Below the pieces are notes generated by a model that did not search any database, was not told the DNA's origin, and saw only the letters and a program-made list of their open reading frames with translations. The position numbers and the translations under genes are program-made. From IMG/VR virus record IMGVR_UViG_3300029692_000015: a stretch of DNA of 43,062 bases. One strand, given 5' to 3'. Within the stretch, counting starts at the first letter, position 1. Every line of letters begins with the position of its first letter. This document shows positions 3,624-43,062 of this stretch, one piece after another. This DNA comes from a virus.

Positions 3624-4344
3624 CCGTCATGCCCTCCTCTACGGCTTCAAAAGCCTTTTTGCCGGTATTGTTGGTGTTGTTTTCAAAAATCGTCTTGCCG
3701 CTGTATCCGCGCAGGATGCAGAACTTTTTCATGATGCCGTTCAACAGCGTCTTGATCTTGCGGAAAAGCTTGTCGTCATGGAACATCATGATCTGCTCCA
3801 CGTTGTTGGAGCTGGACAGATTTGCGCTGCCCATGATGATCAGATTGCCCTTGTCGCTCTCGATCAGGCAAATCTTGCAATGCGATGCCAGCACCGCCAC
3901 GTTGATATGCTGCCCGGTAAACTGGGAGATCATGTAGGGCACCAGCTTTGCCCGCTCCATTGCTACAAAGTAATTGGACACGATCAGGTTCAGGTGCTCG
4001 CAGCCCAGATACCCGACAATGTTGACGATGCTGTCTATGTTCTCCCGGCTCATGCCCAGCGTGGTGATGTAGACCCGGTGCGGTAGCAGTTCTTTTTTGT
4101 AGACCAGCGCCTCGATGAAGTCTCCAAAAATAAAGCGCCCACTCAGGAGCGCAAAATAATCCTTGTCGTAGTCCACCGCGTCCGCTGCCGCTTCTGCGTT
4201 GTCCCATGTGACAGGGGAGAGGTTCAGCTTCGCAGCGCGGATAAACTCTTTCTCAGCCTTTTCTTCATCGCCGCCCCAGTCGCCCAGTGCATCAAGGTTC
4301 AGGTCGAGGGAAGAAAAATCCATCGCTTTCTTTTTTCGTGCCAT
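3616..4344 (-). CDS. PLD-superfamily (single HKD motif) protein, putative nuclease
   Basis: Motif SHCKICLIESDKGNLIIMGSANLSSS matches HxK(x)4[D/E]...GSxN. Likely start is MARKKK at 4344 after AGGTGAGCGG. Located upstream of terL. Confidence 0.6.
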   Translation of the reverse strand: MARKKKAMDFSSLDLNLDALGDWGGDEEKAEKEFIRAAKLNLSPVTWDNAEAAADAVDYDKDYFALLSGRFIFGDFIEALVYKKELLPHRVYITTLGMSRENIDSIVNIVGYLGCEHLNLIVSNYFVAMERAKLVPYMISQFTGQHINVAVLASHCKICLIESDKGNLIIMGSANLSSSNNVEQIMMFHDDKLFRKIKTLLNGIMKKFCILRGYSGKTIFENNTNNTGKKAFEAVEEGMTDG

Positions 4345-4684: not shown

Positions 4685-4718
4685 GCAAAAGAAAAACCAG
4701 CACGTTTCCATGCTGGTT
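4685..4718 (-). terminator. Rho-independent terminator
   Basis: 8-bp stem AACCAGCA/TGCTGGTT (4695-4702 / 4711-4718) with an 8-nt loop, followed on the minus strand by TTTTTCTTTTGC. Confidence 0.75.
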
Positions 4719-4896
4719 CTGTTGACGCACATCCTGCCGGGGGAATTATGGAAACCGGTGTACGGATTATGTGGCCTCCGGTGCGTGCGGAGGTTGTGAG
4801 GACAGGTAAGGATACCCTGCCGCTCTACACGCAGCCACAATCGGGATGTCAGCCCATGCGTCAGGTGGTCGCTGCTTCGGGAGAGCAGCGTGTCGG

Positions 4897-5034
4897 AGCC
4901 GTTAACCGGATTCGAACCGGCACCATCAAGTCTGTTATGTGCGCATTGGTTAAGTGCGCAGTGATGTCCGAGATGTGTCACCAGCGTTGTCCCGCCTTAA
5001 ATGGGCGGCGCTCTGCCAATTGAGCTATAACGGC
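4897..5034 (-). ncRNA. Atypical 138-nt tRNA-like RNA with a 70-nt insertion between anticodon arm and T arm
   Basis: Canonical parts: acceptor GCCGTTA/TAACGGC, D arm GCTC-AATTGGCA-GAGC, anticodon arm CCGCC-CATTTAA-GGCGG (A where U33 is expected), T arm GCCGG-TTCGAAT-CCGGT. The 70 nt between them contain a TGCGCA-CTTAACCAA-TGCGCA hairpin. No encoded CCA. Confidence 0.5.
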
Positions 5035-5990: not shown

Positions 5991-6387
5991 TTTTATCCTC
6001 CATTTCCTCAATCCAGATCTCCACTCTGGGGTTTTGCTTGTCGTAGTCCACCCGGCTGCCATCGTGGGCGGCAACGATGCGGCTATTGTCGTCTGCCAGC
6101 ACACCGGCTGTTACCAGTATGTCGCAGGTGGCTTCAATCAGGTTTGCAAGGTCAACCTTGCGCCGGGTAGCCATGTAGTACACGCACCGCACGTTCACGC
6201 GGGCAGAGATAGGCTCAGGCGGGGCGCGAATCTGCCATAGGCAACCGGTCTGGTATTCCTCAAACGCCGCGCTTGGGGCTACAAAGCGCCGTCCTCCGCG
6301 CCCTTGCAGGATGCGTGCACTGTTTTTCTTTGTGCGGGGGTCACCGTAAAGGGTTATTTTCAATCCATTGCCTCCCATCAATTTCAT
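5983..6387 (-). CDS. rusA: RusA-family Holliday junction resolvase
   Basis: ITLYGDPRTKKNS...DLANLIEATCDILVTAGVLADDNSRIVAAHDGSRVDYDKQNPRVEIWIEE is RusA-like. Start MKLMGG at 6387 follows GGAGGAATAATCAAA. Confidence 0.8.
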   Translation of the reverse strand: MKLMGGNGLKITLYGDPRTKKNSARILQGRGGRRFVAPSAAFEEYQTGCLWQIRAPPEPISARVNVRCVYYMATRRKVDLANLIEATCDILVTAGVLADDNSRIVAAHDGSRVDYDKQNPRVEIWIEEMEDKNG

Positions 6388-6392
6388 TTTGA

Positions 6393-6719
6393 TTATTCCT
6401 CCATCTTTGCGCCACAGTAGGGGCAAAACTTAAACCCATTGTCCTTCGGCGTGCCATCATACATGATGGAAGAATCTTTGCAACGAGAACACGTCCAAAC
6501 AACAGGGTCTCCATCATAGTCTTCCTCGCAGACCCAATGTGCCACCGGCTGCAGCGCTTCCGGGTCGATAGTTGGTGCAGCGTCGATTGCGTCCAGCACC
6601 TCATCATATGCAAATCTCTCAACAGAATCGGCAAACGAAATAGAGTTGTCAGCCGAATCTGCCCACTTTTCGATTTTCTGACGTAGGGCGTTTGCATCAA
6701 TCAACCTTTTATCGCTCAT
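6393..6719 (-). CDS. Hypothetical protein with C-terminal zinc-ribbon-like CxxC...CxxC
   Basis: Start MSDKRLIDANAL at 6719 overlaps the methyltransferase stop. Motif CSRCK...CPYCG near the C-terminus. Confidence 0.6.
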   Translation of the reverse strand: MSDKRLIDANALRQKIEKWADSADNSISFADSVERFAYDEVLDAIDAAPTIDPEALQPVAHWVCEEDYDGDPVVWTCSRCKDSSIMYDGTPKDNGFKFCPYCGAKMEE

Positions 6720-7387
6720 TTTTCTAAGCACTCCGTTTCGCAAATATCAACAATATGTTGGCAAAGCAGTTTAGGTATAACACTTCTCTCTCTACTGTTT
6801 TTCAAGCCCTGTGTTCCTGTTTTGCTCCCTCTAGGGGCTGGAATATGGCACGGATCACCGTTCTTACATATAGGCTTAAACTGCGGATTAGGATGATTTG
6901 TCCAAATATCAGTTGGTTTCATTCGTGTATCGCCGTACTGACAATATGTAACGGTATAGCGCGGCAAAGATTTCATCCAAATCATTTTCCGCATTCCGCC
7001 CCGTGGGTTTTCAATAAAATAAAGTATCGGGTCAAGGTCTTTTATAAGCTGTAAAACGTGCTGATCGACCTTATCACAGAACTTTGCATAATCACTCACT
7101 GGGTCAAGATTCCCTGTGTCCGGGTTTCTTTTCCTGTGGTGACTAATAGCGGCGATGCTGAACGTAGTACAGTCTGGACTTGCCCAAATTACATCTGGGT
7201 GACCGAATTTTGATAAAATATCATTTGCGCTGACGCTCAAAATATCGGCGTAAAGATCAATATTTTCAAAATCCTTGTCCCACTCAACGGAAAACACCTC
7301 ATGCCCCTTCTCTTCAAAGGCCTTTCCGATACTGCGTGTTCCGGCGAAAAGTTCCAGAACTTTTAACTTCTTTTTCTTTCCGTTCAT
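6716..7387 (-). CDS. DNA (cytosine-5) methyltransferase, compact (223 aa)
   Basis: Motif I LELFAGT, motif IV ASPDCTTFS (catalytic PC), motif VI ENPRGG. Sequence is visibly AT-richer than the flanks. Confidence 0.85.
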   Translation of the reverse strand: MNGKKKKLKVLELFAGTRSIGKAFEEKGHEVFSVEWDKDFENIDLYADILSVSANDILSKFGHPDVIWASPDCTTFSIAAISHHRKRNPDTGNLDPVSDYAKFCDKVDQHVLQLIKDLDPILYFIENPRGGMRKMIWMKSLPRYTVTYCQYGDTRMKPTDIWTNHPNPQFKPICKNGDPCHIPAPRGSKTGTQGLKNSRERSVIPKLLCQHIVDICETECLEK

Positions 7388-7445
7388 GCCAATACCTCAA
7401 CGGCGGGAATCTGAATCCCAGTGCATTCGATGTAATGTTTATCGG

Positions 7446-7934
7446 TCATTTTTTCATCATCCCTTCCATTGCCAGCTGCTCGCACTGCTTTTCAGCTTCC
7501 CGGCGCTGCCGGTCATACTCAAACAGCATATCGGCGTACTCTCCGCCCACCCGGCGGATGGCTGTCTCCAGCATCTCCGTCACAAGGTCGGTGTACTTAT
7601 CCGAGCCCTTGCGGCTGTTCTTGGCAGCTTCCCGGGCTTCCCACAAGTCGGTGAGCTTGTCCCGCCTGTCGGCGGTGATCTCACCATAGCCGTAGGCATC
7701 CTGGATCTGCTCCATGCTTTCCCAGCCTTCCAGCTCAGCAAAGGGGTCAGATTCAGCCTTTGCCATGCTGCGGGCTTTGGTCTTTTTCTTGACATACCGG
7801 GTCAGGCCATCCTGAATCACGGCGCGGGCATCGTCCATCGCCTTGCGGACGGCCTTGGCCTCCCGTTCTTTTTTGAGCTGGTCCGGCTGATTTGCCCATT
7901 CTGCCATTAGCTCCGATTTAGTTTTTGGCTTCAT
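7446..7934 (-). CDS. Hypothetical protein (charged, helical)
   Basis: Start MKPKTKSEL at 7934 follows GGAGGAAAAAC. No motif recognised. Confidence 0.6.
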   Translation of the reverse strand: MKPKTKSELMAEWANQPDQLKKEREAKAVRKAMDDARAVIQDGLTRYVKKKTKARSMAKAESDPFAELEGWESMEQIQDAYGYGEITADRRDKLTDLWEAREAAKNSRKGSDKYTDLVTEMLETAIRRVGGEYADMLFEYDRQRREAEKQCEQLAMEGMMKK

Positions 7935-26290: not shown

Positions 26291-26629
26291 TTACTGCTTT
26301 TGTAGGGCTGCTCTTGCCCGATCAAAGAAAAACTGGATGACCTTGCTCATGGTCTCTTCCGTGATAGCCCACGAGACCAGCCTGCCCCATTTGCTGTTGT
26401 CCAGATAGTGGCGCAGCATCTTGACGCACCACGCCTTGCGCTCTGCGCCGCGCTTGGTTCCTTGGATTTCTCGCTCTGCTTGGTCGATGAGGTCAAGCAC
26501 AGTGCCCTTGACGGCGGCACCGTAGCCCAGCCGGAGACATCCAAGGGCGTAGAAGATGAACCCGCCCAGCATGAGCACGAGGGCCACAGGGGCAGGAAGT
26601 GCGGTCAAAATGTTATTGATTGTTGCCAT
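26291..26629 (-). CDS. Holin candidate (LL-H-family-like)
   Basis: N-terminal TM segment LPAPVALVLMLGGFIFYALG followed by QAEREIQGTKRGAERKAWCVKMLRHYL. Located downstream of the endolysin. Confidence 0.6.
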   Translation of the reverse strand: MATINNILTALPAPVALVLMLGGFIFYALGCLRLGYGAAVKGTVLDLIDQAEREIQGTKRGAERKAWCVKMLRHYLDNSKWGRLVSWAITEETMSKVIQFFFDRARAALQKQ

Positions 26630-26632
26630 GTA

Positions 26633-26890
26633 TTACTCTCCTCTCTCTTTTTCGAGGTCTTCTATGCGGTGGTTTGCCACCTTGATCTGCTCTTCCAGCA
26701 CTGGCACGCGCTGGGCAAAGTTGTTGTGCGCCCGGACTTCGCGGGTCAGCTCTTCCAGCTTGGTTTCAGTGACGGCCTGCTGCTTGTCCAACTTGGCGTC
26801 CATGCTCTGTGCGGTGCGGTTATTGGAGACGATCGCGCCGATCAGGCTCAGACCGCCGGTGATGATTGCCACGATGATTGATTCGCTCAT
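26633..26890 (-). CDS. Lysis-associated membrane protein (N-terminal TM + coiled coil)
   Basis: IIVAIITGGLSLIGAIV followed by heptad-like charged repeats. ATGA-coupled to the endolysin stop. Confidence 0.55.
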   Translation of the reverse strand: MSESIIVAIITGGLSLIGAIVSNNRTAQSMDAKLDKQQAVTETKLEELTREVRAHNNFAQRVPVLEEQIKVANHRIEDLEKERGE

Positions 26891-27564
26891 GCGCCCTCCC
26901 GAAGACGGGTCAGACCCTTCTTTGCAATGATTTTAGCGTAGTCCTTGTAGGGCACAGACAAGTCCACGCCGGAAATCTTGCCCGGGATCGCGTCCACAAC
27001 ACCGGGAATCTTGCCCTTGCTGGTGTACTGCCACAGCCCGAATTTCCATTCCGGCGCGGGCTTTTTGCTGCGGTAGGCTGCAAGCCACACGTCATACGGC
27101 TTGAGCGCCGCGCCGGTCATGTACATGTTATCACGGCCAAAGTACAGCCCGGTGTATAGCATGGCGTAAAAGCCCCAGCGCTCCACCGTGCCCAGCGCAT
27201 GAGCGGCAATGTTCGTCAGGGTCTGCTTGTCCAGCGGAGCTTGCACATACTTGTCCTCAATGTCCACCGCCACCGGCAGCTGCACTGTCTTGCCGGTCAG
27301 CACCTTGCGCAGCAGGGCAAGTTCTGCGTCAGCTTCTTCCGTGTTGACCGCCTTGCAGTAGTAGTACACGCCACAGGGGATGCCCAGCCGCTGGCACTCG
27401 CGGTAGTTGCGCTCAAAGGTGGGGTCGATGTACGGCTTGCTGGGCGCGTCTTTCGCGCTGTTGCCCAGCGCCCGCAGCATCACGCCGGAGACAAGGCCGC
27501 TTGCCTTGACATTGTCCCAGTCGATGTTACCCTGCCAGCGGGAAACGTCCATGATAGGTCTCAT
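26887..27564 (-). CDS. Endolysin, glycoside hydrolase family 25 muramidase
   Basis: MDVSRWQGNIDWDNVKASG...GVYYY...VAVDIE is a GH25 signature. Start MRPIMDVS at 27564 follows AAGGAGCAGAGT. Confidence 0.85.
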   Translation of the reverse strand: MRPIMDVSRWQGNIDWDNVKASGLVSGVMLRALGNSAKDAPSKPYIDPTFERNYRECQRLGIPCGVYYYCKAVNTEEADAELALLRKVLTGKTVQLPVAVDIEDKYVQAPLDKQTLTNIAAHALGTVERWGFYAMLYTGLYFGRDNMYMTGAALKPYDVWLAAYRSKKPAPEWKFGLWQYTSKGKIPGVVDAIPGKISGVDLSVPYKDYAKIIAKKGLTRLREGA

Positions 27565-27574
27565 ACTCTGCTCC

Positions 27575-27727
27575 TTAATACTTTTCGCCGGTAATCTCTT
27601 CATACTCCGCTGCGGTCAGGCGCTGGGGCTTGCGCTGCACAAGGATGCGTAGCATGGCCTTAGACCAGAGGCCCGCCTCATACTCGTCTTTTGCTTTGCC
27701 AAAGATCGCGCTGTGCTTATCACTCAT
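27575..27727 (-). CDS. XkdX-like small phage protein (50 aa)
   Basis: MSDKHSAIFGKAKDEYEAGLWSKAMLRILVQRKPQRLTAAEYEEITGEKY. The ...AEEYxEITGExY ending is typical of the XkdX family. Confidence 0.6.
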   Translation of the reverse strand: MSDKHSAIFGKAKDEYEAGLWSKAMLRILVQRKPQRLTAAEYEEITGEKY

Positions 27728-27884
27728 GGCTCATGCCCTCCTTGTCTGCGGCCTCGTCCTCAATAGGCACATCGGCCAGAATGCACAGGAAATCCACCAT
27801 AGACGCGATCTGTGCCAAATCCGCGTCCCGGTTCTCGTTTTCGGCGGCGGTCTTGATGCCGCCAGTGTTGCGAACAATTTTCAT
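27720..27884 (-). CDS. Small acidic ORF (54 aa) translationally coupled to the RT stop
   Basis: ATG at 27884 follows GGAGGGGATAACGAC. ATGA overlap with the RT stop at 27881-27883. Confidence 0.45.
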   Translation of the reverse strand: MKIVRNTGGIKTAAENENRDADLAQIASMVDFLCILADVPIEDEAADKEGMSHE

Positions 27885-28945
27885 GTCGTTATCCCCTCCA
27901 GCAGAGTTTTAACGTATTGATCCATGCGCTGCAGCAGCTGCTGCGAGTTGCCTTTAGCGGCATGGGCTTTCCATGATCCATACTGCTCATACAGGGCAGA
28001 TACCGGTTTCTCTCCTGCCTTGATGAGCTGGGCAAGCCGAAACAGGCGCTTGCGCTCGGCCTTGACGTTCTGCGGGTCAACGGTCATAACGACCTTGCCC
28101 GCCGGGGTCAGGCGGTAGATGAAACCTAGAAAACGGAATCCATCCTTTAGTCTGACGATCTTGGTCTTGGTCGGGTGCAGCTCCATGCCATCGGCAGCGT
28201 ACCGGGCGCGGATCGCCTCCCGCCACTCCTCAAGCTGCGCCTTGTCGTGGTGGATGATGAGGCTATCATCCATAAAACGGACGTACTTTTTCGCCCGCAG
28301 GCGCTCCTTGATGTAGTGATCTATGGGGTCGGGCACCGAGATCCCGGCAAGCTGCACCATCTGGCTGCCCGGATTATAACCGGCCTCGCCGGTATATTGA
28401 CGATCCAGCACCTCACGCACGCGGTTATGCACACTTGGCGGCAGATGCCGCTCAAAGCAGCGGTTTGCCACGTCATGGGGCATCGTGTCGTAATAGTGCC
28501 GGATATCTACCAACAGCACATAGCCATCAGCGCCGTGCTGCCGGTATTCGCGCTCCATCATGAGCTTGACCTGCTCACGCGCCCAGTCCGTACCTTTGCC
28601 GGTCTGACAGGCCGCATTTTGCCGGATGAAACTCCGTGTCATTGCTGGATAAACAGCATTGTCGTTGAGAGAGCGCTGGTATACCCTATCCCGAAAGCCG
28701 TTCGCAACCGCTGTGCGGGGCTTGGGATAGGTGATTCTAACTTTGATTGTTGGCCGTGCCTTGTATGTACCTGTCGCGAGCTCCTTTTGGAGTTTCAGGA
28801 TCTCGTCCATCCGAAACAGGTGAAACCGTCCAACGCTTGCCTTGCGGCACACGCCTTTGGCGCACTTGCCCTCGGAATTATACAGGGCATCGAACCCGAT
28901 TATTATTTCTTCTTCTTGCACTGATTTTTTCAGCTCTCCTCGCAA
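27881..28945 (-). CDS. DGR-type reverse transcriptase (start codon uncertain: TTG 28945 or GTG 28921)
   Basis: YVRFMDDSLI (YxDD box), GYNPGSQMVQLAG (GxxxSQ-like) and LLVDIRHYYDTM. Located immediately 3' of the template repeat. Confidence 0.9.
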   Translation of the reverse strand: MRGELKKSVQEEEIIIGFDALYNSEGKCAKGVCRKASVGRFHLFRMDEILKLQKELATGTYKARPTIKVRITYPKPRTAVANGFRDRVYQRSLNDNAVYPAMTRSFIRQNAACQTGKGTDWAREQVKLMMEREYRQHGADGYVLLVDIRHYYDTMPHDVANRCFERHLPPSVHNRVREVLDRQYTGEAGYNPGSQMVQLAGISVPDPIDHYIKERLRAKKYVRFMDDSLIIHHDKAQLEEWREAIRARYAADGMELHPTKTKIVRLKDGFRFLGFIYRLTPAGKVVMTVDPQNVKAERKRLFRLAQLIKAGEKPVSALYEQYGSWKAHAAKGNSQQLLQRMDQYVKTLLEGITT

Positions 28946-29101
28946 GGATCTGCCGGGTGATAGCGGTCAACACCCCGCAGGGTGGCCACGTCCGGCTGAT
29001 ATTGTTCGTCTGCCAGAGGACAGACATGGCACTCGGCTCCTTGCACGGCAGTTTTTGCCCGGCCTCTGCTATGCAGGGGCTTTTGTGGGCGTGCTGCCGT
29101 C

Positions 29102-29225
29102 CAATCCGGGGCGCAGCGATTCGCGTTGATCGCGTTCCAGTTGTTGACGTTGCCGCTGGAGTTCACGTTGAAGGCATTGTAACCGTTGCCACGATTCGCA
29201 GAGCGCAGCCGCACATTGCGGCCCA
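29102..29225 (-). other. DGR template repeat (TR)
   Basis: 124-nt match to 29728-29851 at an offset of 626. All 17 mismatches are T on the plus strand, which is A on the transcribed minus strand. In the VR frame it is rich in AAC/AAT codons (RLRSANRGNGYNAFNVNSSGNVNNWNAINANRCAP). Confidence 0.9.
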
Positions 29226-29247
29226 TTAGCCTACAGCCATTTTTATG

Positions 29248-29658
29248 TCAAAGCGCTTTTGCACGCTTTGCATCACTCTCGTGCCAGTCCCGGCAGCGCT
29301 GCCGGATATCGCGCACAGTGTTGCCCCAGAAAGAGCACCGTTTGCCAGAAAGGTGGTAGCTTGCTTTAGCCATGTCTATCTCCGCCAAAAGGACGGTGCA
29401 CAGCCGGACGGCGTGCCTTTGAAGCTTAAAGCGCTCCTCTCTTTCGTTCGGTTTGTCTAGCCGGAGGTCATTTGCCCCGAAGATATCAAAAAATATCCGG
29501 TCTGCCGCAGCGCGTAGCTGGCCGGGAAGACTTGCGTCAATTTCGAGGTCAAACACTTTCGCGTTTTTGGTGATCTGTCTGGTATACAGTGCCAGCTCAC
29601 GCGCGTCAAGCGGCAGCGTGAATTTATTGTCCGGTATCTGGTCTTTGCGCATTGCCAT
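29248..29658 (-). CDS. avd: Accessory variability determinant (Avd)-like four-helix-bundle protein
   Basis: 136-aa basic helical ORF located exactly between the target gene and TR. The assignment rests on size and position; the sequence family was not verified. Confidence 0.7.
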   Translation of the reverse strand: MAMRKDQIPDNKFTLPLDARELALYTRQITKNAKVFDLEIDASLPGQLRAAADRIFFDIFGANDLRLDKPNEREERFKLQRHAVRLCTVLLAEIDMAKASYHLSGKRCSFWGNTVRDIRQRCRDWHESDAKRAKAL

Positions 29659-29677
29659 GGGATAGCACTCACTTTCT

Positions 29678-29701
29678 CACCGGGCAAGGGATTGCCCGGT
29701 G
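29678..29701. promoter_or_regulatory. GC-rich hairpin/cruciform (10-bp stem, 4-nt loop) just 3' of the VR-bearing gene
   Basis: CACCGGGCAA-ggga-TTGCCCGGTG begins 2 nt after the target stop codon. No T-tract follows on the minus strand. Confidence 0.7.
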
Positions 29702-29702
29702 A

Positions 29703-30986
29703 TTATTTAACAAGATTGGTCATTTCGCAAGCCGGGGCGCAGCGAAACGCGTTGACCGCGCCCCAGGTGCCGACGAGGCCGCTGGAGTTCACGCCGAAGG
29801 CATAGAAACCGTTGCCACGACTCGCAGAGCGCAGCCGCACATAGCGGCCCACAGTACGCTGTGCCAGATCGCGGGTGATGCGCAGCGGATAGATCTTCCA
29901 CAGAGCCTGCGGGGTCTTTGCGCCGGTGCGCTCTTTCCAATACGGCCAGTAGGTGCCCTCACCGGACACCTGCGGCGAGCAGTAGATCTCCTGCAGGGAG
30001 GGCAGGAAAACCTTGTCATAGGTCACCACAGCGCTGCCGTCATCGGTGACGGCGTTGCCGTAGGTCACGACCTTCACGCGGGTCAGGGCGGCCTTGAAGT
30101 CATCCGAGAAGCCCGCAAGGAAGCCGGGCACGGTGTCTGCCTGATCGGGCTTCATGTCCCACTCGTCCTGCGGATGCCACCATTCTTTTGCGGGTGCATC
30201 GCTGTTGAGGTACTGGCGGTATGCGGACTTATACCACCGGTTGTCGCCGTATCCAACCGGATGCAAGCCGTTTAGGTTGCCGTTGGGCTTTGCGAGGAAC
30301 GTGCCGAGATTCGTGCCGGTGCTTCCAGCAGAGACGTTGCAGGTCTCCAGCAGCTCAGACTTCTGCTGATCCTTGTAGACGTACACCTTCCAGTTGGTAG
30401 GCGCGGCGTCCGGTGCGTTGTAGAAGCCGGTCAGGCGTGCACCTGCGGGGGCGTTCTTGGTCAGCGTGAACTGATAGACGGTGCCGTTCTTGACGTTGGT
30501 GCCCCAGTCCAGACCCATCTTGACGTTGTATGTACCAGCCACCAGACCGGCCTCGGGCACAACGAAAAACGCCTGATACGCGGAAAACTGGATATCTTCC
30601 AGAGATGCGTAGTGCATCTGCAGCACCATTGCGGGTGCGGTGGTGCCGGTCTCACCCTCGGCGATATCGTCCGTCTTTACCACGTCCCACGGGCAATCGT
30701 AGACTTTGCCGTCCTTGCCGGTGTAGGTGTTGACAAGCTGGGTGCCCACCGGGAAAACCGCCGGTGCGTTACCAGCAGCCACCACGGCCTTGATACCGTT
30801 ATAGTCCATCTCCTCCACAACGCTGGTCTGTGCCCGTGCCAACACGCCCAGCGAACTGGACATGCCCAGCAGGGCAGCGGTCATCTGGTCAAGCTTTTTG
30901 CCGTTGTCTTTTGCGGTCTTGTCCAGATAGATAGGCTCCACCACCTCAGTGGCAGGTGCCTGCGTGCTAATTTCGTTTTCAGCCAT
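29703..30986 (-). CDS. DGR target protein (tail-fibre-region receptor-binding candidate with C-terminal variable C-type-lectin-like region)
   Basis: 427-aa ORF whose C-terminus ...GRYVRLRSASRGNGFYAFGVNSSGLVGTWGAVNAFRCAPACE contains the VR. Lies downstream of the tail fibre / Tal genes. Confidence 0.85.
   Translation of the reverse strand: MAENEISTQAPATEVVEPIYLDKTAKDNGKKLDQMTAALLGMSSSLGVLARAQTSVVEEMDYNGIKAVVAAGNAPAVFPVGTQLVNTYTGKDGKVYDCPWDVVKTDDIAEGETGTTAPAMVLQMHYASLEDIQFSAYQAFFVVPEAGLVAGTYNVKMGLDWGTNVKNGTVYQFTLTKNAPAGARLTGFYNAPDAAPTNWKVYVYKDQQKSELLETCNVSAGSTGTNLGTFLAKPNGNLNGLHPVGYGDNRWYKSAYRQYLNSDAPAKEWWHPQDEWDMKPDQADTVPGFLAGFSDDFKAALTRVKVVTYGNAVTDDGSAVVTYDKVFLPSLQEIYCSPQVSGEGTYWPYWKERTGAKTPQALWKIYPLRITRDLAQRTVGRYVRLRSASRGNGFYAFGVNSSGLVGTWGAVNAFRCAPACEMTNLVK
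29728..29851 (-). other. DGR variable repeat (VR)
   Basis: Counterpart of TR. Carries G, C or A at the 17 positions where TR has plus-strand T. Confidence 0.9.
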
Positions 30987-30998
30987 GTGTTACTCCTT

Positions 30999-31556
30999 TC
31001 AGGATTTGCGGTATTTCATGCAGACTTTGCCGTCTACCACGACAAATCCACAGGATTCGAGGGCTGCGGTGCGCGTATCCAGCGCTTGCTCTGCCTGTTC
31101 CGCGCGGGTGGTTTCGGCGGTGATGGCAGCGTCCAAGCGCTGCTCCTCGCCTTTGGCGCGGGATGCTTCAGCGGCAATCCCGTCTGCGTTCGCCTGTTCA
31201 GCCGCCTTTGCCCGCTCAGTTTCCTCCGTGATTTTAGTGGATAGGGCGCTTTCGGCGGCTTGTGCGCGCTCGACCTCAGCCGCGATGTTGTCGGCGTTGG
31301 TTTTTTCCGCTGTTTCCGCGCGGGAAATCTCCGATGCAAGGTCATTCCTTACGCCCTGAATCGCGTCACCGACAGCCTTCGCATCCGCAGCCTTGCCGGA
31401 GAGGGAGAGGGTGGGGTCGATGGCTTTCTGGATGTTTTCGCCTGCCGTGTTTGCGAACTGCTCCACATACTCGCCCATCTGGGCGAGATCCTCGCGCACC
31501 TCGGATGCCATGACGGCTTTGCGGATGCCGTCAATCACTTCTTTAAACGGTTTCAT
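30999..31556 (-). CDS. Coiled-coil tail fibre protein
   Basis: Start MKPFKEVIDGI after GGAGGCAGACG. Contains GKAADAKAVGDAI and long Ala/Glu-rich repeats (AEKTNADNIAAEVERAQAAESAL...). Confidence 0.6.
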   Translation of the reverse strand: MKPFKEVIDGIRKAVMASEVREDLAQMGEYVEQFANTAGENIQKAIDPTLSLSGKAADAKAVGDAIQGVRNDLASEISRAETAEKTNADNIAAEVERAQAAESALSTKITEETERAKAAEQANADGIAAEASRAKGEEQRLDAAITAETTRAEQAEQALDTRTAALESCGFVVVDGKVCMKYRKS

Positions 31557-33276
31557 CGTCTGCCTCCATCGTTTGCAGCGCATAAGACTGCGTATCAGAT
31601 GCGTACTCCTTGAGCGTGCGGCTCAGGTCATACGCGGTGGTTGCTTTGCGGGCGCTGAGCGCCTGCAGGTCGGAGATGCTTGAAAATTTTTTGCCAAATG
31701 TGAATACTTTTTTGTCAGGCTTGTTGTCCAGCGGCTCTACGAGCTTGTTGCAATTGATCCACACATCAATGCCATGGGGCGCGGAAATAATGTGGGTCAG
31801 CTTGCCAAAGGCGATGCGCTCCACGTCCACGCCTGCGTCCTTCAGGTCTACGGCTTTCACCGTGATGCCGTCCGCAAGGCGCAGATGCTTGCCCAGCTCT
31901 GTGTCTGCCGCGTCCTGCAGGGACTGCTGTGTGTTTGCCGTGCCGTCCAGCAAAAGATACCGGGTGATAAGGCCGTACAGCTGTTGCGCGGTCGTATCGT
32001 TGGCAGTGGCGGTCAGGGCGTTGGTGGTCTCCCACAAAAACCAGCCGCTTTTTTTCTTGCCGATGGCGATCACCCGGGTGACGATGTCCTCGGCCTTGAC
32101 ATAGCTGGTCAGGTCAAGCATGTTTGTGCCGAAGGCGATGCCCTGCACGTTGCGCTCGGTCGCGTCCTGTACATAGTCCAGATAGCGTGCTCTCTTGTTC
32201 AGACCGGGGAACAAGGGGTAAGGAATCGTTTCGTGCCGGGTTACCAGATAGCCGCCGTACACGTCCACAAGCTCGCTTTGCAGGATGTCCCACGTTTTTC
32301 CGTAGTTCTTGCCGTCGCCGAACTCGTGCAACTCCTCCACAAGCTGCGGGGTGTAGTCTGCGGACTTTTCCCCGTTGACGTACACGTTGACCGTGCCGTC
32401 TTTTTCCGTTTTGATGCTGTACGTTGTGGATTCGGTGTTCTTTTTGGCCACTTTAATGGTATTGTCGAACTTATAGGTTTCTATTGGCGTAGTGATGGAC
32501 GGGGTAACAATGGTCTGATCTGAATCGTAGGTCTTGCTGCCCTGAGAGATCGCGTTCCGGCGGAGGGTAAACTGGTTGTCTCCCGTGCGCCAGGCAAGGT
32601 ACTCCTTTCCGGTTACGATCTCGTTCAGCGGCCAGTTTTGTGCTGGTGGGGTCTGCACGTCCTCATAGTCGGAAAAAATATAGGAAAAATTCTCTTCAAG
32701 TCGGTTCCCGTTTTGGGAGTACAGACCCCATGTCTGGTAATAGTCGCCCTGCTCGTCCGGGCTGCTGGCGGCATAGTCCAGCTTCAGATAGCACTTTTCG
32801 GCTACCGGAACATACCGCTTTTGCTCCTCCACCGTGACGTTTCCGATGCGGAAGCTTTTATAGCTGTCGGTCAGGCTGGTGTGATTCTTGCAGAGAAAGT
32901 CCAGAAACTGCCGGATGGTCTCATCCTTGGCGGTGTAGGGTGGTACATCGGTGTCGTTGAGGTAGGCAAGCTCGCCCTCACAGTACACCTTCTGCCGCAG
33001 CAGAAAATCCTGCTCATGGCTCATGACCCTGCCTTGCCAGATCTCCTTACCGTCCTGCTCCACGGACACCACCGTTTTCAGCTTTTGCAGCGCGCTGTGC
33101 GCCACGTTGCCCAGCGGGATGGTAAATTCTAGACTTCCAGCCTTACCAAACTCTCGGGTCAGGGTGGGGCTGATCAGCTTTGTAGTCTCCAGCGCAGAGC
33201 CGGGCGCATAGATACAGACCCGGTTTTCCCAGCTGTCCACGCCGTTCTGCGTGCCGGCATAGATCTTGTAACTCAT
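31543..33276 (-). CDS. Tail-associated (Tal / prophage tail endopeptidase-like) baseplate protein
   Basis: 577 aa starting at MSYKIYAGTQ (ATGA overlap with the Dit stop). Positioned after Dit and the tape measure. Confidence 0.7.
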   Translation of the reverse strand: MSYKIYAGTQNGVDSWENRVCIYAPGSALETTKLISPTLTREFGKAGSLEFTIPLGNVAHSALQKLKTVVSVEQDGKEIWQGRVMSHEQDFLLRQKVYCEGELAYLNDTDVPPYTAKDETIRQFLDFLCKNHTSLTDSYKSFRIGNVTVEEQKRYVPVAEKCYLKLDYAASSPDEQGDYYQTWGLYSQNGNRLEENFSYIFSDYEDVQTPPAQNWPLNEIVTGKEYLAWRTGDNQFTLRRNAISQGSKTYDSDQTIVTPSITTPIETYKFDNTIKVAKKNTESTTYSIKTEKDGTVNVYVNGEKSADYTPQLVEELHEFGDGKNYGKTWDILQSELVDVYGGYLVTRHETIPYPLFPGLNKRARYLDYVQDATERNVQGIAFGTNMLDLTSYVKAEDIVTRVIAIGKKKSGWFLWETTNALTATANDTTAQQLYGLITRYLLLDGTANTQQSLQDAADTELGKHLRLADGITVKAVDLKDAGVDVERIAFGKLTHIISAPHGIDVWINCNKLVEPLDNKPDKKVFTFGKKFSSISDLQALSARKATTAYDLSRTLKEYASDTQSYALQTMEADDETV

Positions 33277-42822: not shown

Positions 42823-43062
42823 TCACCACTCACTAAATTCAACAGCAGGCTTTGGCAATTCCGCCCAGTGTGTAACTTCGGCGTATTCATAATCTACGAC
42901 ACGGACATATTCTTGCCAGTCATGCACCCATCCTAAAGCGTCATCGTAATGTCCGCTTGTCGTTCTTGATTCCGAAAAAACACCTTTTTCTTGATTTTCT
43001 CTCGTATCAGCGTAGCAAACCGTGATGAGATACTCCTCAAGCTCACCCTTTTTGTGGCGGGG
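42823..43062 (-). CDS. 3' part of the wrap-around hypothetical gene (same gene as 1-246; 42964-43062 duplicates 1-99)
   Basis: The frame is open from the window end to TGA at 42825-42823 and is continuous with the 1-246 segment once the 99-nt overlap is collapsed. Confidence 0.5.
   Translation of the reverse strand, partial: PRHKKGELEEYLITVCYADTRENQEKGVFSESRTTSGHYDDALGWVHDWQEYVRVVDYEYAEVTHWAELPKPAVEFSEW
42964..43062. repeat. Terminal direct repeat, copy 2 (identical to 1-99)
   Basis: Read directly. Confidence 0.95.

Follow-up and report, generated by a model that had tools for sequence, protein, structure and literature searches.

Here we describe a diversity-generating retroelement (DGR) carried by an uncultivated virus, IMG/VR record IMGVR_UViG_3300029692_000015, whose complete 43,062-nucleotide (nt) stretch is referred to throughout as the window. 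The class is well established, and tens of thousands of DGRs have been catalogued. The genes and repeats of the element lie on the minus strand between positions 27881 and 30986, and every open reading frame (ORF) among them is intact. Read along that strand, they begin with a target gene of 427 amino acids (aa; 29703-30986), followed by an Avd-like gene of 136 aa (29248-29658), called as an ORF and matched by phrog_3206, a non-coding template repeat (TR) of 124 nt with 28 adenines (29102-29225), and the gene for a reverse transcriptase (RT; 27881-28945), which is recognised by RVT_1, has its longest ORF of 354 aa from a TTG at 28945, and contains an FMDD box. The copy that matches the TR, the variable repeat (VR), is likewise 124 nt long and occupies codons 379-420 of the target (29728-29851). 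The TR begins 22 nt past the avd stop codon and is separated from the RT by a spacer of 180 nt (28922-29101), presumed to be the structured part of the DGR RNA. Behind the target gene stands a strand-neutral hairpin or cruciform, a perfect inverted repeat with 11-nt arms and a 4-nt loop (29677-29702). An earlier annotation made from the letters alone, hereafter the sequence-only reading, had placed all four DGR parts on the minus strand in the order known from Bordetella phage BPP-1, and had taken the last ~40 codons of the target to be a variable repeat; all parts are found where it had put them, and the VR covers codons 379-420 of 427.

The two repeat copies are 86% identical and differ by 17 mismatches, every one of which falls on an adenine of the TR. 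Expressed per site, 17 of the 28 TR adenines are changed against none of the 96 other bases, a pattern that random placement would produce with P ~6e-14. The TR adenines occupy codon positions 1 and 2, and no substitution at them can yield a stop codon. Fourteen TR codons are open to diversification, namely twelve AAY, one TAC and one ATC, and the recodable residues span 382-414 of the target. An AAY codon can encode 15 amino acids and no stop, and the 14 recoded codons together allow ~2e15 possible target proteins. The further, remote VRs that the sequence-only reading had recommended looking for were searched for in the window, and none was found there. We also noted a 98-aa ORF (28930-29226, minus strand; MGRNVRLRSANRGNGYNAFNV...) that crosses the TR and the spacer in the reading frame of the VR and is annotated as a gene in public metagenomes, for example at 4696-4992 of a related locus, L001; its presence is most likely artefactual, the TR having kept the reading frame of the target.

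The variation among relatives was assessed in related loci, 70 of them taken from human-gut metagenomes and 69 from IMG/VR, which gave 91 unique loci with both repeat copies; the closest clade, clade A, has 69 loci with RTs that are 96-100% identical. No two VRs were the same, with 91 distinct VRs in the 91 loci and 69 in the 69 of clade A. Relative to the consensus TR, the VRs of clade A differ in 1152 of 2001 A-site cells (57.6%), compared with 27 of 6555 non-A cells (0.41%). Where a locus carries the consensus TR (32 loci), adenines account for 533 of 539 TR/VR mismatches, and the comparison of each locus's own TR with its own VR places 1338 of 1434 mismatches at A over all 91 loci. The Avd-TR-RT segment is nearly invariant across relatives (nucleotide diversity at most 0.05), and away from adenines the VR is no less conserved than its flanks. 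The heterogeneity of the VR that had been proposed as a test is accordingly seen at the level of assemblies, where it is adenine-restricted across the 91 loci. As judged by the VR differences between assemblies, the DGR is recently active.

One could also imagine a fossil cassette, in which the VR differences are old and diversification has ended. The variation is read from assemblies rather than from within-sample reads, and the exact target protein of the window is present on 6 contigs (P0121), meaning that a given VR can persist. A fossil would nevertheless be hard to reconcile with ORFs that are all intact, with a VR that is different in 69 of 69 clade A loci while the RT and the Avd-TR-RT segment are so nearly constant, and with non-adenine VR sites that are conserved like the flanks, and we consider it very improbable. 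A recently active DGR is the reading that we retain, and the ~90 near-identical genomes of an abundant, uncultivated human-gut phage, each with its own VR, constitute a clean natural dataset.

The assignment of the RT can be approached independently of the repeats. In addition to its RVT_1 match (5.3e-14), the protein is matched by phrog_1423, a phage RT family, at 1.2e-68 and 233 bits. Its best match in the PDB, over the full length, is 8ub7_A (E 1.4e-15), which comparison with the GenBank record identifies as Brt of BPP-1; a group II intron RT comes next at 2.9e-7, and no retron or Abi structure reached 0.01 in this search. Aligned directly, the RT and BPP-1 Brt share 24% identity over 330 aa (E 3e-21). 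Among GenBank phages, the named relatives of the RT include Faecalibacterium phage Lelie and phages nd4/nd12, for which DGRs have been described (PMC11792537, PMC10743442), and Bordetella phage records were matched as well. The cluster to which the RT belongs counts 1222 member sequences. These sequence relationships support the placement of the RT in the DGR lineage. A grouping with retron, group II intron or Abi enzymes, named by the sequence-only reading as the result that would speak against a DGR, was not seen in the PDB search, where the BPP-1 RT was closest.

A rival reading is that the RT is of a different class, be it retron, group II intron, Abi or DRT defence, and that the repeat has nothing to do with it. 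The best NCBIfam match is indeed a group II intron RT/maturase (TIGR04416, 75.9 bits), and PADLOC returned a generic RT and a UG4 match at 89 and 71 bits, both below threshold. The TIGR04416 score, however, is far under its cutoff of 300, and both libraries apparently lack a DGR RT model. An Rfam scan of 27500-31500 at E up to 1 gave no match, intron and retron non-coding RNAs included, and the full-length PDB match and the phrog_1423 score given above both point away from such classes. Nothing other than a DGR explains TR/VR differences that are confined to adenines. We regard an RT of another class as so improbable that it can be set aside in favour of a DGR RT.

Within the DGR lineage, the RT is somewhat unusual in motif 4, which reads PGSQMVQ and aligns to IGSLTSQ of BPP-1. 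P192 thereby takes the I/V/L position and V197 the S position, while G193 and Q198 are retained. The sequence-only reading had noticed a GSQ-containing motif and compared it to the GxxxSQ signature; it was mistaken in the register, as the GSQ corresponds to the G and the first two x positions and not to the SQ. PGSQ[MLI][VI]Q or a close variant is present in all 113 aligned RT homologues, down to ~50% identity. VQ endings among DGR RTs have already been recorded, and a Pro at the first position is not listed (PMC3521204). The Pro is the less usual feature, and it stands at the position of BPP-1 I181, a residue that promotes adenine mutagenesis (PMC7826257). R77, the equivalent of BPP-1 R74, is conserved. 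Adenine mutagenesis evidently works despite the Pro and Val changes in the motif, and an RT clade with Pro at the I181 position and Val or Ile in place of the signature Ser could serve as a test case for the determinants of selective infidelity. As to the length of the protein, translation probably starts at a GTG at 28921, preceded by a GAGGAGAG ribosome-binding site, which makes the product 346 aa long; gene callers chose the equivalent start (346 aa) for a 99%-identical public protein, P0001. The ORF and FMDD box of the 354-aa RT that had been described before are thus upheld, and its length is probably to be shortened.

The second protein of the cassette had been described as a basic, helical ORF of the size of Avd, and this description is borne out. 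The protein of 136 aa has an isoelectric point of 9.47, and is matched over nearly its full length by phrog_3206 ('Avd protein of DGR') at 1.4e-7. Its AlphaFold2 model consists of four helices, at a predicted local distance difference test (pLDDT) score of 61, that is, with moderate confidence. The top Foldseek match of the model in the PDB is 2gsc_E, a protein of PF05635, the family homologous to Avd (PMC10053308), and the top match in BFVD is an 'Avd-like protein' with a TM score of ~0.6; the E values of these Avd-family matches are 0.07-0.3 and derive from the pLDDT-61 model. By exhaustive profile search, the ~137-aa Avd-like family has 514 representatives. Of 89 family members scanned against Pfam, 5 matched PF05635 and 3 matched PF22296 bAvd, and these were the only Pfam families matched by more than one member. 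PDB searches with the Avd sequence and Avd profiles returned nothing meaningful. We assign the protein, with moderate confidence, as an Avd-type accessory protein, a predicted four-helix bundle of a divergent subfamily.

In BPP-1, the sequences that distinguish recipient from template have been described as the initiation of mutagenic homing (IMH) element and its TR counterpart, IMH* (PMC5758913). An IMH-like element is found here as the GC-rich, undiversified 3' end of the VR, CGCTGCGCCCCGGCTTG (29728-29745, minus strand), with an IMH* counterpart at the 3' end of the TR (29102-29119, minus strand), which has an A at repeat position 120. Diversification ends at repeat position 105, beyond which the GC-rich end, CGCTGCGCCCCGG, does not vary. 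At position 120, TRs have A and VRs have C, with a single VR exception, and the homology stops three bases further on. The same A/C difference is found in relatives whose RT is ~48% identical. To judge from these sequences, the difference between the 3' ends of VR and TR is a mismatch of the IMH/IMH* type. The exception is the VR of locus L085 (4095-4218), which has the TR-type A at position 120 (CCCCGGATTG), a hint that information transfer now and then extends, at its 3' boundary, past the usual IMH difference.

The hairpin starts directly after the stop codon of the target, ~22-25 nt past the end of the TR/VR homology, and occurs downstream of the VR only. It is kept in 91 of 91 loci, with sense-strand loops of TCCC (76), TTCC (14) and GGGA (1), and in more distant relatives its place is taken by another GC stem, of 9 bp, which shows a compensatory change and likewise has a loop of 4 nt. 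This agrees with the hairpin or cruciform that BPP-1 requires for target recognition, such structures having GC stems of 7-10 bp and 4-nt loops and lying 4-34 bp from the VR (PMC3240598). The GGGA loop belongs to locus L057 (~4247-4260), where the loop is flipped and the stem unchanged, as strand switching at a quasi-palindrome would give. The hairpin also scores as terminator-like, and a role as a plus-strand terminator was considered and rejected: its T-run is the complement of the last codons of the target and is unconserved in clade B.

In the spacer between TR and RT, relatives with as little as 47% RT identity still share the blocks CAAGGAGCCGA, GAACAAT and CGCTATCA, and one hairpin shows 3-6 double-sided compensatory changes per pair. 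Such a conserved and covarying spacer fits what is expected of the structured part of a DGR RNA.

The target protein is matched by Pfam DUF6273 at residues 242-357 (1.5e-10) and by phrog_19280 (3.2e-24). Its middle is a predicted beta-sandwich (~residues 141-231), and its C-terminal part is the DUF6273 domain bearing the VR, with the recoded codons at the C-terminal end, just downstream of the DUF6273 match. In an alignment of 23 target homologues the variable codons are limited to residues 382-414. In Faecalibacterium phages, it is in DUF6273 that DGR targets carry their VR (PMC11792537). From the DUF6273 match and the literature we infer that the C-terminus may adopt a C-type-lectin fold. 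The protein may also bind a receptor on the host.

A separate stretch in the middle of the target (30465-30585, residues ~135-175) is as variable among relatives as the VR, with a nucleotide diversity of up to 0.25. The variation there consists of a few discrete haplotypes and is not adenine-specific, and it looks like ordinary recombination or mosaicism. A second VR was considered as its cause and rejected, as the stretch has no TR match and its haplotypes are ordinary.

The sequence-only reading went a step further, and proposed that the intact cassette reprograms the receptor-binding specificity of the phage. The intact DGR and the hypervariation of its VR are confirmed, and the receptor-binding role and the lectin fold are best kept as expectations. 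One could also speculate that the DGR is active and that its target is instead an adhesin or decoration protein, binding for example mucus glycans or another surface, such that something besides host range is tuned. The second-best PHROG match of the target is a 'Hoc-like head decoration' family (phrog_10993, 2e-13), some DGR targets of Faecalibacterium phages are Hoc-like Ig-repeat proteins (PMC11792537), and the N-terminal 130 residues of the target are without assignment, its structural model being unusable. The Hoc-like match, however, is limited to the DUF6273-type region, and the target gene directly follows the tail genes and precedes the XkdX-like ORF and the lysis genes, a site that is occupied by receptor-binding proteins in siphoviruses and by mtd in BPP-1. 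On balance an adhesin or decoration protein seems unlikely, if by no means negligible, and a receptor-binding protein is the reading that we prefer.

Taken as a whole, we are highly confident that the locus holds a complete DGR with the architecture of BPP-1, composed of target, avd, TR and RT, and that this DGR has been active recently. A number of observations weigh against this view. The strict [I/V/L]GxxxSQ signature, conserved in ~90% of curated DGR RTs (PMC3521204), is absent from the RT, although it is diagnostic and not a mechanistic requirement. For the Avd-like protein, hhalign found no similarity between its family and BPP-1 Avd, a Pfam scan of the window's own protein gave no match, and the pLDDT of its model is moderate. 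The loop of the hairpin (29688-29691) reads TCCC on the sense strand, and the published GRNA consensus fits the antisense strand only (PMC3240598). For the target, the AlphaFold2 model (from a 23-sequence alignment of 91-100% identity) has a pLDDT of 36.8 and is unusable, PDB searches with the sequence and with a 19-member profile including 40%-identical relatives gave no match, and an hhalign comparison of the target family with Mtd was negative. Finally, activity was judged across assemblies, and not from reads within one sample. We consider the RT motif, the strand of the loop and the divergent Avd to be minor variant features of a DGR.

By analogy with BPP-1, a transcript that spans the TR and the 180-nt spacer and also includes the 3' end of avd would be bound by the RT together with the Avd-like protein. 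In making cDNA from the TR, the RT would then be faithful at all bases but adenine, opposite which it could insert any base, and this cDNA would replace the VR at the 3' end of the target. The VR would be marked as the recipient by its GC-rich IMH, through the near-fixed C/A difference from IMH* and the sequence that follows, and by the hairpin behind the stop codon, such that information flow is kept one-way. As a result, 14 codons would be recoded, at the tip of a protein encoded between tail and lysis genes. The chemistry of priming and retrohoming is modelled entirely on BPP-1.

The TR itself is not constant across assemblies. Clade A contains 30 TR alleles, which compared with the consensus are changed in 195 of 2001 A-site cells and in 16 of 6555 non-A cells. 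TRs with at least three such changes are found in 20 of the 69 clade A loci (~29%); the loci with altered TRs include L004, L007, L011, L014, L015, L017, L018, L019, L032, L092, L094, L108, L116, L119 and L129. The altered TR base equals the VR base of the same contig in 68% of cases, compared with 31% expected from the VRs of other loci, and both the substitution spectrum of the TRs and their per-site frequencies resemble those of the VRs. Certain altered alleles recur across assemblies (L014/L092/L094 and L004/L032), with VRs that differ elsewhere and agree with the TR at the altered sites, and these recurring alleles look heritable. The altered TRs of L019 and L018 do not match their own VR. 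The TR changes could be due either to VR or cDNA sequence sometimes being written into the TR, or to short-read assembly mixing the two repeats.

As a tentative explanation, which we consider possible without favouring it, the TR may be unprotected, and an occasional write-back of VR or mutagenised cDNA, through a leaky IMH/IMH* distinction or VR-to-TR gene conversion, would give rise to adenine-poor, heritable alleles that are then copied faithfully into new VRs. If write-back were true, DGR templates would erode in nature and would need selection at the level of lineages for their upkeep, and it would account for part of the 'non-A-to-N' TR/VR differences reported in surveys. The TR polymorphism, if real, bears on how the directionality of DGRs is enforced. 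Reports of polymorphic TRs or of gene conversion in DGRs were looked for in a searchable literature library, and none of relevance turned up there.

The ends of the window form an exact direct repeat of 99 nt (1-99 and 42964-43062), and given this terminal overlap the window represents a circularly closed genome of 42,963 bp. Among its products are an integrase, an anti-repressor, a replisome organiser, a large terminase, a portal protein, a major head protein and a tape measure protein. Upstream of the target lie tape measure, distal tail and Prophage_tail-type genes, and past the cassette follow a 54-aa ORF, an XkdX-like ORF, a GH25 endolysin and, in the position of a holin, two small ORFs. 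The tail/lysis junction of a small temperate phage, which is where the sequence-only reading had located the cassette, is therefore an apt description of a circular genome of this size, with an integrase and with the cassette between the tail genes and the GH25 endolysin. Just upstream of the target, a 194-aa Ala/Glu-rich protein, probably a coiled coil (30999-31583, minus strand; phrog_13589), is kept beside the cassette in relatives; the 54-aa ORF (27720-27884, minus strand), which overlaps the RT stop codon by 4 nt, is likewise conserved beside the cassette in relatives.

The neighbourhood is less constant on a larger scale. Locus L001, from another phage, has a 99%-identical RT and cassette next to other lysis genes (6343-7645, compared with 26291-27603 of the window): genes for a Peptidase_M15, a Phage_holin_4_1 and a Holin_SPP1 protein replace the GH25 endolysin module, and the upstream tail genes differ too. 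From the sequences compared, the block from target through avd, TR and RT to the 54-aa and XkdX ORFs appears to behave as a mosaic module.

An 84%-identical RT was found on a 105-kb contig of a Faecalibacterium metagenome-assembled genome, and the GC content of the window is ~55%; the host is probably Faecalibacterium. Among deposited phages, a megablast of the cassette against GenBank phages gave no match. The nearest GenBank phage record, MT835491, which is unannotated, has an RT identity of 48.5% and a target identity of 41.6%, and the large terminase is at most 53% identical to that of any deposited phage.

DGRs of gut phages, including Faecalibacterium ones with DUF6273 targets, have already been described, and the locus adds a well-documented member rather than a new principle. 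The closest systems are the (pro)phage DGRs of Roos, Pioen, Lelie and CP11 (PMC11792537) and those of phages nd4/nd12 (PMC10743442). These share with the present locus the human gut, probably the same host genus, a cassette beside the tail genes, and a DUF6273 target with the VR just downstream of the matched part (242-357 here), as well as hypervariation of the VR among cognate IMG/VR genomes. The RT identities of 31% to Lelie, 37% to nd12 and 29% to nd4 make them distant relatives, and the single VR found here compares with two in Lelie and CP11.

The prototype, the mtd-avd-TR-brt cassette of BPP-1, has the same gene order and strand logic, and is likewise situated between tail-fibre genes and two small ORFs plus an endolysin. 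The sizes of the parts are also similar, with 134 nt in BPP-1 versus 124 nt here for the TR, 128 versus 136 aa for Avd, 328 versus 346-354 aa for the RT and 381 versus 427 aa for the target. In both systems the VR is at the 3' end of the target, whose stop codon is followed immediately by a hairpin with a loop of 4 nt. The hairpin is farther from the TR/VR homology here (25 nt) than in BPP-1, within the range of 4-34 bp known for phage DGRs (PMC3240598), and its sense-strand loop is TCCC instead of GAAA. While Avd and the target have no detectable sequence similarity to bAvd and Mtd of BPP-1, the RTs align over their full length; they differ in motif 4, PGSQMVQ here and IGSLTSQ in BPP-1, and have in common the arginine that promotes adenine mutagenesis, R74 in BPP-1, which is kept here as R77.

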